A stretch of DNA of 64,000 nucleotides from a virus (Duplodnaviria; Caudoviricetes), in the IMG/VR virus record IMGVR_UViG_3300007280_000474. One strand, written 5' to 3'. The notes beneath the pieces are model-generated. The model was not told the DNA's origin and ran no database searches. It saw nothing but the letters and a program-made list of their open reading frames with translations. The translations under genes were made by a program, and so were the position numbers. Positions 11,440 to 63,694 of the stretch are shown here, piece after piece (positions within the stretch are counted from its first letter, which is position 1; every line of letters starts with the position of its first letter).

Positions 11440-12762
11440 TTAGTCCTCTCTGCTGTATGGTACTGTAATACCAAATGGTGAGGTTGGTGTTGATAAGCCT
11501 CTGCTACCGTGTACAATAAACAATGTATCACAGTAGTTCTCATCTCCCCAACTACCCCATGGGTATCCATCTGTGAACATGATGAACTTCTTAGGCACAA
11601 TGCCTTCGTCCTTCATGTAGTCAAAGCAACAATCAAACTCGGTACCGCCGCCACCTTCGATTTCGTAGTCCATAAACTCGTCCATGTTAGTGTCAGTGAA
11701 TACTTGAGGATTGTGTACTTCTGTATCAAAGCAGAATAAGTGTATCTTGAAGTTAGTGTACTGATCCATAACGCCTTTAACTTCGCTTAAGAAGTCAATT
11801 AGCATGTCGTCAAATATACTACCACTCACATCAAGTGCAATAGCAACATCGATAGTTGTGTCGTAGTCCATACCTGGCAACCAGTAACCACTGTCTGCAC
11901 CTTTACGGCTTTGTGTTCTAAAAGTGTAGTCGTTCTTGATCACACTTTGAATTTGCATAGCAAGTAGTGTTCTCCAATCCAACTGAGGATTGAGGATCTT
12001 GTCCAGCATACGTTTAACGCCACCTGGTAAGTTACCGGCGCCTGCTGCTTTTGCTGCTTGCACTGTAGCACTTTTAAATTCTTGCTTGGCCTTTTCCTTC
12101 TCATCAGCAGTCATTGGGATTGGACCTGCTTTACCATTTTCGCTGTCGTCAGCATCACCATCACCTGCAGGACCGCTACCAGCATCATCGCCATCTTCAC
12201 GTTCCATGTGAATGTCGAAAGATACTTTTTGTATACGACCTTCATCGTCCATTTCTTTGTATATTTCGTCATACACTGCTTCAGAGGTCATGTCCTGATA
12301 CTTGTAATCAAAACATACTTCAATAATCTCTTTACGAATTCGCTTGCCAATCTTAGCAAGTTCAAGTTCTAGATTGATAACGTAATCGTTCGCTACATTC
12401 CAAAGTTGATGTATACGGTCTCCACGTCTATCAGGATCCATATGGTCATATACGCAATGTAGAATCTCATGACCCATAAGCCAAATGCACTCATCTTCTG
12501 TAAGTGCGGCAGTGAAGTGTCTGTTGTAATAGAAATGCTTACCGTCTGTAGCGGCAGTAGGACACCATTCAGTAGCATCAATCAACTTCAAACGTGTAGC
12601 AAGAGCACCAAAGAACGGTGCATTCATAAGCATGTCTACACGAGCTTTGATAAGAATATCTTCTATTTCTACTGAAGTTTTAGTTGTTTGCGGTACATCA
12701 ATAACAGGCTTTGCGTCCTTGTTTACAGATGTCTCGTCTTTTGTTGCGAATGAGTTATCCAT
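11440..12762 (-). CDS. DUF2201-type putative metallopeptidase + VWA domain protein
   Basis: TAATDG, HEILH (HExxH), DVSGS MIDAS, GGGTEF, FTDG. Confidence 0.9.
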   Translation of the reverse strand: MDNSFATKDETSVNKDAKPVIDVPQTTKTSVEIEDILIKARVDMLMNAPFFGALATRLKLIDATEWCPTAATDGKHFYYNRHFTAALTEDECIWLMGHEILHCVYDHMDPDRRGDRIHQLWNVANDYVINLELELAKIGKRIRKEIIEVCFDYKYQDMTSEAVYDEIYKEMDDEGRIQKVSFDIHMEREDGDDAGSGPAGDGDADDSENGKAGPIPMTADEKEKAKQEFKSATVQAAKAAGAGNLPGGVKRMLDKILNPQLDWRTLLAMQIQSVIKNDYTFRTQSRKGADSGYWLPGMDYDTTIDVAIALDVSGSIFDDMLIDFLSEVKGVMDQYTNFKIHLFCFDTEVHNPQVFTDTNMDEFMDYEIEGGGGTEFDCCFDYMKDEGIVPKKFIMFTDGYPWGSWGDENYCDTLFIVHGSRGLSTPTSPFGITVPYSRED

Positions 12763-12793
12763 TTGTTACCTAATTTCCTACTTAATATTGTAT

Positions 12794-12854
12794 ATTATAC
12801 GCTCTTTTGTGGTGTAAGTCAAGTACATATTACTTATAAATTTCAATAACTTAC
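12794..12854 (-). promoter_or_regulatory. Early sigma70-type promoter with upstream GTAAGTTATTG element
   Basis: TTGACT-17-TATAAT; element 21 nt upstream of the -35. Confidence 0.85.
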
Positions 12855-12870
12855 ATGCCCTTAATAAGGT

Positions 12871-12943
12871 GGACCTCCCGTTAAGGAGGTCCGTTTGCCC
12901 TGTGCTAGGTAGGGAGTAACATAGGTAGGTGCACAAGGGCAAA
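12871..12943 (-). ncRNA. Candidate structured 3'-UTR RNA (two hairpins; anti-SD-like loop)
   Basis: Stem 12894-12905/12931-12943 with 25-nt loop ACCUACCUAUGUUACUCCCUACCUA; second hairpin GGACCTCC/GGAGGTCC at 12871-12892. Confidence 0.5.
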
Positions 12944-12948
12944 AACCG

Positions 12949-14058
12949 TTATACGATATACTTGAGGTACTTATCGTTGAAAGTAGTCTGTATATCTTTG
13001 TCCAACACCTTACGGAAGTTGAACACGATTTGGTAGTCTTTCATCAATGTCTTAAGAGCAAAGATGACCATTTCAGGTTCAAAGTTGTTGAATGCAAAAC
13101 GAATCATGTTGTTAAGCATTTTGCCGATATTGGTGTCTACCTCACCAACTTCTTTCCATACTTCGTTTAGTTCGTATGCAAGACCGACAGTCAAACTGTA
13201 TTTTGCAGATATCTCACTTGATACCTTCTTGTCCAGTTTAGTGACCTTACCATCAAGTACCTCGGTTGGATTAGGTAGGAACGCCGCAACCTTACGGTGC
13301 TCAGCAAACTTAATTGCCATACCTTCGCCAACTGCACCTGCAAGTTCAGCCATTTGTTCTTTTGCACTTGCATCCTCAAATTCTTCTACATTAAGAATCT
13401 CGCTCACAAAGTTCCATGAACGTGGTGAGGCAAATGCCTGTGAGTTAGACTTTGGATCAAAGTCAAACAAGTCCTGTTTAGCATAAGACAAGTAACCAAC
13501 AACATCAGGGTGAACATCGTTGTTCACAGCCCACTGAGCCCAATCCTCAAAATTGACCTCCATGTTAATGTGTCGGAACCTGTTAGCCAACGGTGCTGGC
13601 ATTCTGTATGTAACACCTCGGTCAGTGTCACGGTTACCAGCCGCTACAATCCTAACATTCTTAGGAAGGGTGTACTGTCCAATCTTACCGTTAAGAACTA
13701 ACTGGTAAGCCGCCGCCTGTACACTTGGAGGAGCAGAGTTAAGTTCATCCAAGAACAATACAATAGTATCGAACTCAGCAGCCTGCTCTGGCGTTGGAAG
13801 GTCCGCTGGGGGAGCCCATTCCATTTGATTAGTTTCCGGGTTACGGAAAGGATATCCACGCAAGTCTGTTGGCTCCATAAGAGCTAGACGCATATCAATC
13901 ATTAAGTTTTTACCAGGAAGAACATTGTATGTAATGTTCTCAATAAGTTCAGACTTACCTATGCCTGGAGCACCCCAAAGGAATATGGGACGTTTTGCTT
14001 TCATTGCTCGAACTACAATTGGTTGTACTTGAGCTGGACGTGTTGTTAATGTTTCCAT
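12949..14058 (-). CDS. MoxR-like AAA+ ATPase
   Basis: GAPGIGKS, DLRG, LFLDELN, AAGNR, LANRF, SPRSW. Confidence 0.92.
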   Translation of the reverse strand: METLTTRPAQVQPIVVRAMKAKRPIFLWGAPGIGKSELIENITYNVLPGKNLMIDMRLALMEPTDLRGYPFRNPETNQMEWAPPADLPTPEQAAEFDTIVLFLDELNSAPPSVQAAAYQLVLNGKIGQYTLPKNVRIVAAGNRDTDRGVTYRMPAPLANRFRHINMEVNFEDWAQWAVNNDVHPDVVGYLSYAKQDLFDFDPKSNSQAFASPRSWNFVSEILNVEEFEDASAKEQMAELAGAVGEGMAIKFAEHRKVAAFLPNPTEVLDGKVTKLDKKVSSEISAKYSLTVGLAYELNEVWKEVGEVDTNIGKMLNNMIRFAFNNFEPEMVIFALKTLMKDYQIVFNFRKVLDKDIQTTFNDKYLKYIV

Positions 14059-14093
14059 TGTTTACCTACCTATTTAATTTAACCTACCCTAGT

Positions 14094-14122
14094 ATTATAC
14101 TAAGAGTTCCTACCAAAGTCAA
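14094..14122 (-). promoter_or_regulatory. Early sigma70-type promoter for the AAA gene
   Basis: TTGACT-17-TATAAT. Confidence 0.8.
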
Positions 14123-14297
14123 CCGAAACTTTATACATTTTTTCAAAAATATGTATTGCTTCTTCACGACTCAACAGTTCTTCTTGATACGCACTACGCT
14201 CTTCACAGTTAAGTGTGTACCACTCATTAAAGTTGCTTTCGACTGAAATACCATCAATCCACTTGAATTCAAATTGTTCTGCCATCATAATCCCCAT
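14100..14297 (-). CDS. Hypothetical protein
   Basis: 65-aa ORF coupled to the upstream gene. Confidence 0.55.
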   Translation of the reverse strand: MGIMMAEQFEFKWIDGISVESNFNEWYTLNCEERSAYQEELLSREEAIHIFEKMYKVSVDFGRNS

Positions 14298-14806
14298 TAT
14301 TGAACAGAAACTCTAACTGGAATAAAAGTGTCCAATTGAGGCTCGTAGTTACGTTTGATCCAATAAGTATCTCCGTCCAATTCGACTAGGACATTGTACC
14401 CTGTGATCACAGTTTCAGTATAACGTTGCTGTACCATCTTGGTGACTTCTTTACAAGTTTCACCCTTCTTGTATGCAATGTTATTACCAACTTTGTTACC
14501 TAAGACACCACCGATAACTTTAGCTGCTTCGTTGCCGCTACCGCCACCAATTTTGTCACCAATTGCAGTACCAATTGCGGCACCTAACAGTCCTTCTGTG
14601 CTGCCAAAGATGCCATTAACACCTCTTTCAACATAGCCACTGCTATCACGTTGTGCTTGATACCCACATACCAACTGCTGAGTTGGCACATTCTCATACC
14701 TAACCTGCTCATGCAGAATAGGATTTACGTCTACGACATACGCATCAGCCGCCAAAGCAGGGCCACTGGCTGCAATAAGTCCTAGTGCAATTAAAGATTT
14801 CTTCAT
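14297..14806 (-). CDS. Secreted glycine-zipper 2TM protein (YcfJ-like)
   Basis: Signal peptide; GAAIGTAIGDKIGGGSG..AAKVIGGVLG. Confidence 0.8.
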   Translation of the reverse strand: MKKSLIALGLIAASGPALAADAYVVDVNPILHEQVRYENVPTQQLVCGYQAQRDSSGYVERGVNGIFGSTEGLLGAAIGTAIGDKIGGGSGNEAAKVIGGVLGNKVGNNIAYKKGETCKEVTKMVQQRYTETVITGYNVLVELDGDTYWIKRNYEPQLDTFIPVRVSVQ

Positions 14807-14837: not shown

Positions 14838-14898
14838 ATTATACGGATATATTGGGGTAAAGTCAACCAAAAAACCGACTTAAAAATCAATAACTTAC
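14838..14898 (-). promoter_or_regulatory. Early sigma70-type promoter with upstream GTAAGTTATTG element
   Basis: TTGACT-17-TATAAT; element 21 nt upstream of the -35. Confidence 0.85.
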
Positions 14899-40255: not shown

Positions 40256-40909
40256 TTAAGCAGTATCGAACTTAACCCTGTTGATCATTGTTTCTTTGAA
40301 CCCTGTGAACTTGTTCACATTGTGTGGTTTTACATATCCTGCAATAGTATATGTCTCACCAACAACAGGCATATCGCCTCCGTATGGCTTAAAGAACTTT
40401 AACAGATGCTTATCGTCAATGCTAGTAGTTACCAAATGACTTTCTGTAGCAGGAATGTACTTAACAAATTCAACTTTGACTATAAAAGTACAACGTGTGT
40501 TCTGCGTACCTTGGTATTCGCTAGTATGTCCTAACTTACGCTCTCTGTCAGTCCATGTGTCAGACTTTACTTTGTTCAAGTAAACATTAGGCAGACTTGC
40601 GGCAATACCTAGAGAACTCTTGTCAGTTGATTTACTTGTAACGAACCCTAGCACTTTCTTTTCAAACTCAGTGAGATTACGCTCAAGTGCTTTAAAGCCA
40701 AGTCCTTGTAGATAACTGATTACTTCTTCTGCTTGCTCGCGATCAGCATCAACGATTTCAACTTTGTCACCTTCGCAAAAATGCTTGTACAAGTATGAAC
40801 TATTTGATTTCTTTTCTTCCGAGTCAAAGCCTTTCTTTATAAAGCCTTCGTTGATTCGCTGTATTGCACAACTTGCTGAAATAACTTCAGTGACTGAATA
40901 CTCTACCAT
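40256..40909 (-). CDS. Hypothetical protein (possible C-terminal OB fold)
   Basis: Start MVEYSV with SD AGGAG; ends ETMINRVK. Confidence 0.6.
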   Translation of the reverse strand: MVEYSVTEVISASCAIQRINEGFIKKGFDSEEKKSNSSYLYKHFCEGDKVEIVDADREQAEEVISYLQGLGFKALERNLTEFEKKVLGFVTSKSTDKSSLGIAASLPNVYLNKVKSDTWTDRERKLGHTSEYQGTQNTRCTFIVKVEFVKYIPATESHLVTTSIDDKHLLKFFKPYGGDMPVVGETYTIAGYVKPHNVNKFTGFKETMINRVKFDTA

Positions 40910-40920
40910 GCTACTCTCCT

Positions 40921-41496
40921 TTAAGATACGATTTGCTTGTAAATATGTTCCCACTTGCTAAGTCTGACAGCAGGGCCATCATACTTGCTGTTGTGGTCGT
41001 GTGCTACAAGAATACCATTCAACCCTAAGTTGATTCCACAGTCTACGTTCTGTGGTTTGTCTTCTACCCAGTAGCAACCTGAATCTTTATACGGTAATAG
41101 TGCATCGTCTTTGTCAGCACCCGTATCTAGATAAACATATCTCTCAAACACTGTTGGTCCAAATGTTTCAATTAAGTTCTTTGTTCTTAAGTGTTGAGAG
41201 TAATCGTCATTACTCAATGAAGTAATTGCATGGAATATAAATCCATGTTCTTCATGCAGTTTCTTAACGTATTTGATTGAATCCCTTAGTGGTGGCAGTT
41301 TCCTAATCCACGCACTTTCATTGAACATTCTGATGAAACGTTTTGCTTCAATTGGGTCCATGTCATACTTAATGTTCATCAAGTATTCACCTGGCTTCTT
41401 AATCTCAAATCCATGCCTTGACATCCAATGGTCAAATGCATATTCCCAATCAAATAGAACGCCATCACAATCGACTAGTATCAGTTTGTCTTTCAT
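40921..41496 (-). CDS. HAD-family 5'(3')-nucleotidase-like protein
   Basis: LVDCDGVL, ITS, WVEDK. Confidence 0.8.
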   Translation of the reverse strand: MKDKLILVDCDGVLFDWEYAFDHWMSRHGFEIKKPGEYLMNIKYDMDPIEAKRFIRMFNESAWIRKLPPLRDSIKYVKKLHEEHGFIFHAITSLSNDDYSQHLRTKNLIETFGPTVFERYVYLDTGADKDDALLPYKDSGCYWVEDKPQNVDCGINLGLNGILVAHDHNSKYDGPAVRLSKWEHIYKQIVS

Positions 41497-54108: not shown

Positions 54109-54789
54109 CTATTTATCATATAAAGGTAGCTCTGAGAACAACTTTATCTTGTCTACTGTGCGTATATTGTTTTTAAATGATAAGAAAGCAAATGCTTCTA
54201 GGTCTTTCCACTCGTCAGCATCGCAGTACAAGTAGTTGTAAAACCATTTAGAGTACATAGAATTATCAGTGATAGAAAATCTATAGTCTTCAAAGTTATT
54301 CTCCACAAACGTATAGATTGAATTTCGTATGTCTTGGTCTTTACTGATGTCGGTGCCTTTGAATTTCCATGGGGTATTCAATCCAACACTGAATTCTATT
54401 CTAGTATCAAACTTTCTATACCAGTTTTGGTCTCGTAATACAAGCCCAGGTGTGTGCATATCCAAAATATGCTGTTCGCTAACAGGAACATGAACACTGT
54501 CAACATAGTCTGACATCCAATTAATAAACCATAAAAAGTCGTCCCACAACGAAAAGTATATGTTTCTGCTTTTAGGAGTATGCAATTCTCTTTTAAAGAA
54601 CATGTTGGTTGTTCGTAAGAAGTCCGTCACTTCCCAATGCATGTTAGGATCATACTCGGGGTGAGGATGTCCTGGTCCTTTTATACAGACACGATAAGGA
54701 TAGTCTCCAAAGTAAATTTTGGTGCTAGGATATATTTTTATTTTTTCGTCAACGTCTTTTTTAGTGCAGTGTTGTATGTGTAAAGTCAT
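54109..54789 (-). CDS. Hypothetical protein
   Basis: Start re-assigned to MTLHIQ. Confidence 0.55.
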   Translation of the reverse strand: MTLHIQHCTKKDVDEKIKIYPSTKIYFGDYPYRVCIKGPGHPHPEYDPNMHWEVTDFLRTTNMFFKRELHTPKSRNIYFSLWDDFLWFINWMSDYVDSVHVPVSEQHILDMHTPGLVLRDQNWYRKFDTRIEFSVGLNTPWKFKGTDISKDQDIRNSIYTFVENNFEDYRFSITDNSMYSKWFYNYLYCDADEWKDLEAFAFLSFKNNIRTVDKIKLFSELPLYDK

Positions 54790-56962
54790 ATTCTTCCCCA
54801 TCAAACAACACAGTGATTGTGGTATCTGATAGATTTTCAAAGAGTATTTTTTTACTGAGAGGCTTTTTGATTTTGTTTTCAAATACTCTCTTTAATGGTC
54901 TTGCACCCATAGTAGGTTCATAACCATCCTCTGCTAATTGCTTCCTTGCACCTTCTGACAATTCAATTACAACGTTTGATTCGTTTTCTTCTAGTAAAGC
55001 ATTTGTATCTTTAACTAGCCTGTCTACAATTAACAACATCAACTCTTCTGATAATTTGTTAAATTCAATTACAGCATCTAATCTGTTTCTAAACTCTGGC
55101 GTAAAGAACTTATTAACTGCTTTGTTTTGTTCGCCCTTCTTGGTTTGATCTCCGAAACCAATCTTCTTCTCTTCTGCCGCCGCGGCACCTAAGTTGGATG
55201 TCATCAACAGCACTACATTAGTAAAGTCAACAACATTACCTGTAGCACCTGTAAGTCTACCATCGTCCATTACTTGTAACAATACCTGTAATACTTCTGG
55301 TGCGGCTTTCTCAACCTCATCAAGTAGCAGTACACAATTAGGTGACTGTTCTACTTCTGCAAGCAGTTGCCCTTGGCCCATCTTGCCCTCAGCATGTCCT
55401 ACATAACCTGGAGGAGCACCAATAAGTTTAGCAACACTGTGACGCTCTTGATATTCTGACATGTCAAACTTAACAAGTTTAGCATCCATATGGTTTGCTA
55501 ATGCCCTTGCTGTTTCAGTTTTACCTGTACCTGTTGGGCCTACAAACAAGTAACTGCCCACTGGCTTGTTCTTTTCTCTGAGCCCTGCTTTACTTACTAA
55601 GATGTTTTCTACAATAGCATCAACTGCTTGATCTTGTCCGTATACCTGTCCTTTGATTCTTTGATCAAGTTCTCGATAGCCGTCCTTCTTCTCAATGTCA
55701 ATCATTTCTTCATTCATCTTGCTTACTTTAGACAGCACTGTAATAACATCGTTGATTGTAACTGTTTCTCTGCCTGCTAGTTTTACTCTAGCACCTGCGG
55801 CATCTACAATGTCTAGTGCCTTGTCTGGGAAATACTTGTTCTTGACATATCTGTCTGTGAGGTCTACTAATTTATCTAGCACACCATCTTCGTATTTTAC
55901 TATGTGGAAGTTCTCGTAATGACCTTTCAGTCCATTAACAATACGTTTTGTATCTTCTACAGATGTTTGTTCAATGTCTAGTCTTGCAAACCTACGCATC
56001 AATGCTCTGTCTTTGTCAAAACTGTTTGCAAATTCGTCTGGTGTAGTTGCACCAATAGTTAATAGTCTACCTTTGCCCAACACAGGCTTGATCATGTTTG
56101 CAACATCAACACTGCTGTTGCCGCCTGCGCCAGCACCCATAATCATATGTATTTCATCAATAAACAAAATAGTGTCTGGGTTATCTTCTAGCACTTCTAA
56201 CACTAGTTTGAGACGCTCCTCAAAGTCACCTCTGTATCTTGTGCCTGCTAATAAGTCTCCAATACTCAAACTGTATACAACTTTGCTACGCAATAGAGGA
56301 GGTACCTCACCGTCCACAATACGTTTTGCAAGGCCTTCTGCGATAGCAGTTTTACCTGTACCTGGTTCGCCAACTAGTACACAATTATTTTTCTTACGTC
56401 TTGCTAGGATATGTACTAAGTCATCTACTTCTGTTTCTCTACCAATAAGAGGATCAATACGATTCTTATTTGCTTCTTTGTTTAAATTGGTAGTGTATTC
56501 TTCTACAAGCTCTGCACTCTTGCTGTTGCGTATCTCCTTGTCTACTTGCTCTACAACGCCGTTACGCCCAAAGCCTGCTAGTTCGCAGTAGTATTGTGCA
56601 TATGAATTATCTTCGCTTAGAATGCTTGTAAACACGTCTAGTGGCTGTATTTGTTGCTTGCCTTGGAAGATGACTTGTGCTAATGCACGTTGGATAACAC
56701 GTTCAACTGCTTGCGTTTTCTTAGGAGAACCTTTGACACCGTGAGCTGCTTTGATTCCATTGAAGTCTTCGTTGAGTAGAAAGCCTTCTAAGTCTTGACG
56801 AATTTGTATTCTATCAACTTGCATTACTTCTGCAAGGTTCACAATGTCGTCACACTCTAATAAAGTGTGCAAAATATGTTCGCAAGTCAAGTACTCATGC
56901 TGAAGGTCTGTGGCATAATTTAGCGATTCTCTAATAATGTCATCTAGCAGTTTGCTATCCAT
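54761..56962 (-). CDS. clpA: ClpA-like Hsp100 ATPase
   Basis: GEPGTGKT, LFIDEIH, GPTGTGKT, LLDEVEKA, IGF ClpP-docking loop, MGARP. Confidence 0.93.
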   Translation of the reverse strand: MDSKLLDDIIRESLNYATDLQHEYLTCEHILHTLLECDDIVNLAEVMQVDRIQIRQDLEGFLLNEDFNGIKAAHGVKGSPKKTQAVERVIQRALAQVIFQGKQQIQPLDVFTSILSEDNSYAQYYCELAGFGRNGVVEQVDKEIRNSKSAELVEEYTTNLNKEANKNRIDPLIGRETEVDDLVHILARRKKNNCVLVGEPGTGKTAIAEGLAKRIVDGEVPPLLRSKVVYSLSIGDLLAGTRYRGDFEERLKLVLEVLEDNPDTILFIDEIHMIMGAGAGGNSSVDVANMIKPVLGKGRLLTIGATTPDEFANSFDKDRALMRRFARLDIEQTSVEDTKRIVNGLKGHYENFHIVKYEDGVLDKLVDLTDRYVKNKYFPDKALDIVDAAGARVKLAGRETVTINDVITVLSKVSKMNEEMIDIEKKDGYRELDQRIKGQVYGQDQAVDAIVENILVSKAGLREKNKPVGSYLFVGPTGTGKTETARALANHMDAKLVKFDMSEYQERHSVAKLIGAPPGYVGHAEGKMGQGQLLAEVEQSPNCVLLLDEVEKAAPEVLQVLLQVMDDGRLTGATGNVVDFTNVVLLMTSNLGAAAAEEKKIGFGDQTKKGEQNKAVNKFFTPEFRNRLDAVIEFNKLSEELMLLIVDRLVKDTNALLEENESNVVIELSEGARKQLAEDGYEPTMGARPLKRVFENKIKKPLSKKILFENLSDTTITVLFDGEEYDFTHTTLH

Positions 56963-63634: not shown

Positions 63635-63694
63635 ATTATACAGGCTAATACCGGCAATGTCAAGCAAAAAAACCTATGTAAAACAGTAACTTAC
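63635..63694 (-). promoter_or_regulatory. Early promoter with upstream GTAAGTTACTG element
   Basis: TTGACA-17-TATAAT; element 20 nt upstream of the -35. Confidence 0.85.

Follow-up and report, generated by a model that had tools for sequence, protein, structure and literature searches.

A 3' untranslated hairpin with a loop complementary to the ribosome-binding leader of its own phage AAA+ ATPase mRNA

The subject of this study is a large-loop hairpin found just behind the stop codon of a MoxR-like AAA+ ATPase gene (the AAA gene) in IMG/VR record IMGVR_UViG_3300007280_000474, a virus (Duplodnaviria; Caudoviricetes) of which one stretch of 64,000 nucleotides (nt), here called the window, was analysed. 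The hairpin lies in the 3' untranslated region (UTR), and its loop is complementary to the leader that carries the ribosome-binding site of the same mRNA. The pairing between the two appears to have been kept in more than 100 contigs through at least six different sequence solutions. It is probable, to judge from these comparisons, that the loop pairs in vivo with the leader of its own mRNA and masks the ribosome-binding site, most likely in cis, and the expected outcome would be repression of translation. All genes around the AAA locus are on the minus strand, and the first-pass annotation of this DNA had the coordinates and sequences of hairpin, loop and leader right on that strand. The AAA gene is a self-contained unit of promoter, short leader, gene, hairpin and terminator hairpin, with the following parts (window positions, in the order of transcription):

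14094..14122, minus strand: sigma-70 promoter of the AAA gene, consensus or near-consensus (TTGACT, 17 nt, TATAAT), from a promoter scan
14082..14088, minus strand: leader box 1, GGUAGGU, putative partner of the CCUACC(U) copy on the 3' side of the loop
14064..14073, minus strand: leader box 2, the Shine-Dalgarno (SD) region, AUAGGUAGGU, fully complementary over 10 nt to loop positions 1-10
12949..14058, minus strand: MoxR-like AAA+ ATPase gene, 369 amino acids (Pfam AAA_5; PHROG 1297 'ATPase', 5e-94)
12931..12943, minus strand: 5' arm of hairpin 1, with one bulged U (folding; covariation)
12906..12930, minus strand: loop of hairpin 1, the anti-leader, 25 nt, with two CCUACCUA copies around GUUACUCC, unpaired in the minimum free energy (MFE) structure
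12894..12905, minus strand: 3' arm of hairpin 1 (folding; covariation)
12871..12892, minus strand: hairpin 2, a GC-rich stem of 9 base pairs (bp) with a 4-nt loop, at the terminator position (folding)

Hairpin 1 begins 5 nt past the AAA stop codon in the window, has a 12-bp stem with one bulge, and presents a G-poor loop that is held open. The whole 3' UTR is about 80 nt long there, and the fold with both hairpins has an MFE of -35.3 kcal/mol (z = -2.55). At the other end of the mRNA the leader is about 30 nt long; transcription probably starts some 6-7 nt past the -10 hexamer, and box 1, which sits 6-12 nt past that hexamer, would then be at or adjoining the 5' end predicted for the mRNA. An equivalent promoter occupies the same position upstream of the AAA gene in almost all relatives.

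The loop was scored against every 30-nt segment of the sense strand of the window (n = 10,662), and the AAA leader ranked first, at -25.9 kcal/mol, which bears out the antisense relation between the loop and its own gene's ribosome-binding leader that the first-pass annotation had proposed. The predicted duplex is bipartite, with loop nt 1-10 on the SD box and the 3' copy of the loop on the 5'-end box in a 7-bp helix. The 10-mer helix at box 2 accounts for -13.8 kcal/mol, and no second match of 10 nt occurs in the 7-kb locus. On the AAA leader, 300 shuffled loops of equal composition gave -11.05 ± 2.68 kcal/mol, none of them reaching the real value, and the loop bound this leader far better than the generic 16S anti-SD tail did (-24.5 vs -7.8 kcal/mol). 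The predicted cost of opening the partners was small, at 0.18 kcal/mol for the loop, 1.65 for the SD box and 0.65 for the other leader box. These values come from loop-only scans and exact-run statistics, which replaced an energy matrix of the whole 3' UTR against the leader; that matrix was discarded because noise from the GC-rich terminator arms dominated it. Among 27 other genes of the window with a 3' intergenic region, no excess complementarity to the gene's own start region was found. Six of the 13 GGTAGG sites in the 64 kb fall within 12908-14114, clustering at both ends of the AAA gene, with one copy in the promoter spacer. The spacer copy was not conserved in relatives, and a third CCTACCTA inside the gene (13272-13279) proved to be ordinary coding sequence, likewise unconserved; both were set aside.

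A protein-based scan of IMG/VR retrieved 80 loci with AAA identities of 49-88%. At 65-88% identity, a large-loop hairpin followed the AAA stop codon and was itself followed by a GC hairpin, usually with a U-run. The stems differ widely in sequence, with more than 12 unrelated raw stems and at least 22 different arm sequences. A covariance model built from ten gap-free examples gave exactly one match per locus and a single match in the window, so that the 64 kb hold no further copy or paralogue of the element. All ten stem pairs showed changes on both sides among 27 distinct sequences; 89.5% of stem cells were paired, against 34-46% when the partner column was slid, and the covariation score was 0.695, against at most 0.137 in the slid controls. 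The alignment of the stems was fitted to the model, which biases it towards the structure, and the unfitted raw stems agree with it.

The loop behaves in the opposite manner to the stem. Of 28 distinct relatives that had been collected on protein similarity alone, 15 had an identical 24-nt core (24/24), although third codon positions of the AAA gene in those 15 were just 41-60% identical to the window, which indicates strong purifying selection on the loop. The exact 24-mer was present, in one copy each, in 33 viral contigs and 116 marine metagenome contigs, and in none of 185,579 prokaryote genomes. It lay 15-40 nt past the end of the AAA gene in all 32 viral loci that include the gene end and in all 75 testable metagenome loci, while a VWA gene came after the hairpin in just 25 of 59 metagenome loci. 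The element thus stands directly behind the AAA gene with or without the VWA gene, and belongs to the former. Some clades (L044-47, L049, L053, L061) lack the element, showing that it can be lost.

The leaders change where the loop does not, and in other clades the two change together, which is the decisive observation. In the clade with the invariant loop there are 50 AAA leader variants, each matching the loop in an uninterrupted Watson-Crick stretch of 7-11 nt, and their mean duplex energy was -18.0 kcal/mol, against -9.6 ± 1.6 kcal/mol for shuffled loops. Most of these leaders have two boxes, a TAGGT-like box at the putative 5' end and an SD box 1-20 nt away, and the loop is the complement of both boxes with the spacer removed. 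The TAGGT-like box occurs at the same position in 21 leader variants, where it is predicted to pair with the 3' part of the loop. Two loci (L007, L008) have an insertion of about 40 nt between promoter and SD, and both loop-matching boxes, 9 nt each, are kept there. Elsewhere, loop and leader are complementary to each other locus by locus:

L017: cognate complementarity of 10 nt
L023: cognate complementarity of 12 nt
L025 and L031: cognate complementarity of 10 nt
L055: cognate complementarity of 10 nt
L058: cognate complementarity of 11 nt, with a further 9 nt to the 5' end

At positions flanking the GGAG/CUCC core, the same place is taken by three different Watson-Crick pairs in different clades. 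More distant clades have no big-loop hairpin, yet complementarity between the 3' end and the start region is kept. In L050-L057 and L062 the complementary stretch overlaps the stop codon and matches the SD, and within this type a compensatory change from C:G to U:A separates L062 from L077; in L066, L072 and L079 a stretch just past the stop codon matches codons 2-4. The SD, 11-15 nt upstream of the AUG, is the centre of the paired stretch in nearly all clades. Summed over 31 clade representatives, the longest cognate runs came to 255, compared with 204 ± 6.4 when partners were permuted, and none of 20,000 permutations gave a sum as high. In seven representatives the match to the own leader was the sole one of its length in the 7-kb locus. 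Conservation of the loop core, covariation of the stem and of loop with leader, and an excess over the anti-SD background, all of which the first-pass annotation had proposed to look for, were found.

These results bear directly on one alternative, that the hairpin is a mere terminator or 3' stabiliser and that its complementarity to the leader reflects chance and generic anti-SD composition. The position is terminator-like, and C/U-rich loops generally pair with purine-rich start regions, but neither the shuffled loops nor the partner permutations reach the observed values, a terminator has no need of an invariant 24-nt loop, and a separate terminator hairpin comes next. This explanation is extremely improbable. 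As to that next hairpin, the terminator position is occupied in most relatives by a canonical GC hairpin with a U-run, while hairpin 2 of the window has no U-run and is followed by ACCUUAUUAAGG. A GC hairpin without a U-run was seen at this position in the window (12860-12892, minus strand) and in L001, L012, L016, L018, L021 and L024, where a conserved CACCUUAU-like stretch, able to form a tiny hairpin, comes after it; such a hairpin 2 may be a non-canonical terminator or a processing signal. In L026 and L027, about 35-60 nt past the AAA stop, an extra small GC hairpin lies inside the big loop ahead of the anti-leader, and the loop therefore tolerates insertions outside the pairing segment.

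The favoured explanation, pairing of the 3' UTR with the leader of the same mRNA, would work as follows. Once transcribed, the 3' UTR would pair with the leader in a long-range pseudoknot between a loop and a single strand, with the 5' copy of the loop on the SD box and the 3' copy on the box at the 5' end of the transcript, and the ribosome-binding site would be covered. With the pairing centred on the SD, binding of the 30S subunit is expected to be blocked, and hence translation repressed. As the 3' UTR is made last, ribosomes would load only during transcription; translation would be confined mainly to the period of ongoing mRNA synthesis, and output would be capped per transcript. The duplex may in addition target the mRNA for decay; with helices of 10 and 7 bp, it falls short of the length of a classical RNase III substrate.

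Several observations weigh against this explanation. Ribosomes load before the 3' UTR exists, so repression could be at most partial. The 50 leaders of the invariant-loop clade differ and use different parts of the loop, and pairing with a single leader thus leaves the freezing of 24 positions unexplained. By the looser energy measure, the own leader ranked first in 8 of 33 loci; most of the others had it among the top 1-2% of windows of the 7-kb locus, and such a high but not leading rank applied to about half of the relatives. Leaders of neighbouring genes can be nearly identical to the AAA leader and score almost as well, at -18.5 kcal/mol in L096 and L103 and -17.0 kcal/mol in L093; the AAA leaders reach -19.2 kcal/mol in L093 and L103. 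A pseudoknot between loop and leader is beyond the scoring reach of nested folding programs. Among cultured phages, no near DNA match was found in the phage collection and there is no known cultured carrier; the closest isolates are PA5oct-like jumbo phages, at 50% protein identity (the figure for the AAA protein of the window against the PA5oct ATPase), and in PA5oct the ATPase gene is followed by nothing more than a plain terminator. The frozen 24 positions, together with the nearly shared neighbour leaders, leave room, as a minority reading, for a role in protein binding or with several targets.

If the loop were a protein site or a DNA signal (operator, recombination or replication), its likeness to the leader would come from a shared factor and not from RNA pairing. 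The invariance of all 24 nt, even though individual leaders use only part of the loop, would fit such a signal, as would the clusters of GGTAGG at both gene ends, with one site in the promoter spacer. A shared site should, however, have the same sequence at both places, and here the transcribed strand carries the complement instead; covariation of the stem calls for a single strand that folds; divergent clades keep the complementarity and not the motif; the AAA gene is never inverted relative to its neighbours; and the promoter-spacer and intragenic copies are unconserved. A protein site or DNA signal is accordingly very unlikely to be what is conserved.

The same pairing could also operate in trans, either by a processed small RNA (sRNA) of about 70-90 nt from the 3' UTR or by pairing between mRNAs, which would titrate the AAA mRNA and possibly other early leaders. 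We regard action in trans as unlikely. In its favour, known sRNAs derived from mRNA 3' ends are built alike, with a conserved single-stranded seed displayed in a hairpin and a terminator behind it (PMC9438474). Many relatives have an AU-rich stretch, GUUUAAAA, ahead of the stem, several alternative types of leader are covered by the invariant loop, and in some phages the AAA-type leader is common to neighbouring genes. Hfq-type sRNAs need a terminator U-tail, and this is lacking in the window and in several relatives. No internal sigma-70-like promoter was found in the last 90 nt of the AAA gene in 75 of 76 variants, and no near-consensus antisense promoter at the locus, where weaker plus-strand matches were at the level of shuffled sequence.

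The search for other targets was similarly unfavourable to action in trans. The matches that the first-pass annotation had named for the genes starting at 14806, 63601 and 40909 are present, and the last extends further than it had stated: the start region of the 40909 gene (40256-40909, unannotated, 217 amino acids) is the second-best loop site in the 64 kb (40895-40924, minus strand), with 15 contiguous bp, two of them G:U, covering SD and AUG. This gene was rejected as a target, as the complementarity was lost in 12 homologous loci, six of them on contigs with the identical loop. The other 68 start regions of the window scored slightly better with the real loop than with shuffled ones (mean -9.88 vs -8.53 ± 0.62 kcal/mol; 6 of 300 shuffles were as good). 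The leader of the downstream gene, considered as a target upon read-through, scored -12.2 kcal/mol in the window and was outscored by the AAA leader in all cases listed; the gene itself varies as well, and it too was rejected. No conserved trans targets were found. Shut-off of early genes by an sRNA in trans, as the first-pass annotation had suggested, is therefore not supported: its best additional target is unconserved and the remaining leaders are only slightly above background.

Pairing in cis is favoured by the absolute linkage of the element to the AAA gene, the missing internal promoter and U-tail, the overlap of the anti-leader with the stop codon in some clades, which leaves no separable hairpin, and the lack of a conserved trans target; the single copy in 64 kb points the same way. 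In a broader version of the trans idea, the loop would serve as a 'universal anti-leader': set free on a small RNA, it would pair with the promoter-leader cassette shared by many early mRNAs of these marine phages and turn off early translation. This we consider quite improbable. If true, it would do with RNA what the RegB nuclease of T4 does by cutting early SD sequences, and would explain why 24 positions are frozen despite the partial use of the loop by each AAA leader.

It is also conceivable, though distinctly doubtful, that the pairing acts positively, either by a loop closure that shields the 5' end or a cleavage site from ribonucleases, or by a proximity of stop and start that allows re-initiation. 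Box 1 at the putative extreme 5' end of the transcript would suit the former, and an interaction of 5' and 3' UTR that controls ribonuclease action is documented for hbs of B. subtilis (PMC5737220). The hairpin lies 2-20 nt past the stop codon and the complementary stretch overlaps that codon in some clades, so that terminating ribosomes would melt the pairing. A positive role is difficult to reconcile with a paired stretch centred on the SD, where 30S binding should be blocked, and in a systematic test distant anti-SD-like sequences repressed expression (PMC12697547).

Masking of the start site by the 3' UTR of the same mRNA, the explanation preferred here, belongs to a known class of mechanism. 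In icaR of S. aureus, pairing of a 3'-UTR anti-SD motif blocks initiation and makes an RNase III site (PMC3868564). In both systems a pyrimidine-rich anti-SD motif of the 3' UTR is the complement of the SD region of its own mRNA, the transcription unit stands alone, and pairing could be in cis or in trans. They have no sequence relationship, and while the icaR 3' UTR exceeds 100 nt (PMC3868564), that of the phage is about 80 nt and places the anti-leader in the loop of a covarying hairpin. The phage pairing is, moreover, bipartite (5' end and SD), concerns a lytic phage gene, and has comparative rather than experimental support. The phage element shows the complementarity between 3' UTR and SD that defines the icaR class, and the likeness is one of mechanism and not of a homologous family.

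The full-length hok mRNA of plasmid R1, with its tac/fbi pairing, is likewise kept silent by a fold-back of its 3' end on its 5' end, which gives a closed, untranslated form (PMC9841398), and in both cases pairing is possible only after transcription is complete. However, hok belongs to a toxin-antitoxin system of type I, has an antisense RNA, and becomes active on 3' trimming, whereas the phage has a 369-amino-acid AAA ATPase, no toxin and no antisense gene, and its SD would be paired directly and not via an upstream complementary box. The 3'-end-derived sRNAs of enterobacteria resemble the phage element in having a conserved single-stranded seed beside the mRNA's own terminator and a fragment that processing could release (PMC9438474). 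They differ in acting on other mRNAs, with conserved targets, while the only conserved target in the phages is the parent mRNA, and there is no U-tail in this phage. Anti-SD-like sequences hundreds of nt from a ribosome-binding site form pairs with that site in vivo, prevent initiation and accelerate decay (PMC12697547), and a far-downstream pyrimidine-rich stretch is predicted to act in the same way in the phage. Such sequences are depleted by selection in that setting (PMC12697547), but the phage stretch is kept by strong selection, extends well beyond the SD core and sits in a dedicated hairpin.

The RNA motif itself is new. No Rfam family reached its gathering score in the 64 kb, and matches within 12780-14130 were at chance level (E ~4-5). 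The first-pass annotation had called the arrangement apparently undescribed, and literature searches found no paper describing it, nor an earlier report of such pairing in a (lytic) phage or any example with comparative support this broad.

Downstream of the AAA unit are two further features:

12794..12822, minus strand: separate consensus promoter of the downstream gene, which marks the end of the AAA unit
11440..12762, minus strand: downstream gene, DUF2201 metallopeptidase/VWA-like (Pfam PF13203 + PF09967), outside the element

A DUF2201/VWA-like protein is the usual partner of MoxR ATPases. The label of the gene at 11440-12762 (minus strand) is in conflict, as PHROG 1314 (1.6e-105) gives 'HNH endonuclease' while Pfam gives DUF2201 and VWA-like domains. 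The same phage has a second large AAA+ machine, a 733-amino-acid protein encoded at 54761-56962 (minus strand) that matches the phage 'ATP-dependent protease' family (PHROG 4871, 1.2e-237). Near-identical cassettes of promoter and leader stand on early genes at 14838-14866, 12794-12822 and 63635-63663 (minus strand), each with consensus -35 and -10 hexamers followed by an ATACA..TATTAAGTA-like leader, and in relatives the AAA gene and a neighbouring gene may have almost the same leader. The near-identity of the cassettes and the sharing of leaders suggest modular cassettes spread by recombination.

Pairing between the two ends of an mRNA is known in bacteria from a few experimental cases (icaR, hok and hbs), none of them with much support from comparison. 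In the present case, a family of uncultured marine phages appears to keep such a pairing for one gene across its many contigs, and the evidence is about as strong as purely evolutionary evidence gets for selected masking of a start site by a 3' UTR. The motif is easily searchable, and its design is simple, an anti-leader in a hairpin loop beside the terminator that would limit the yield of protein per transcript. One may ask why a MoxR-type ATPase in particular has to be held at a low level, or pulsed, in the course of infection.

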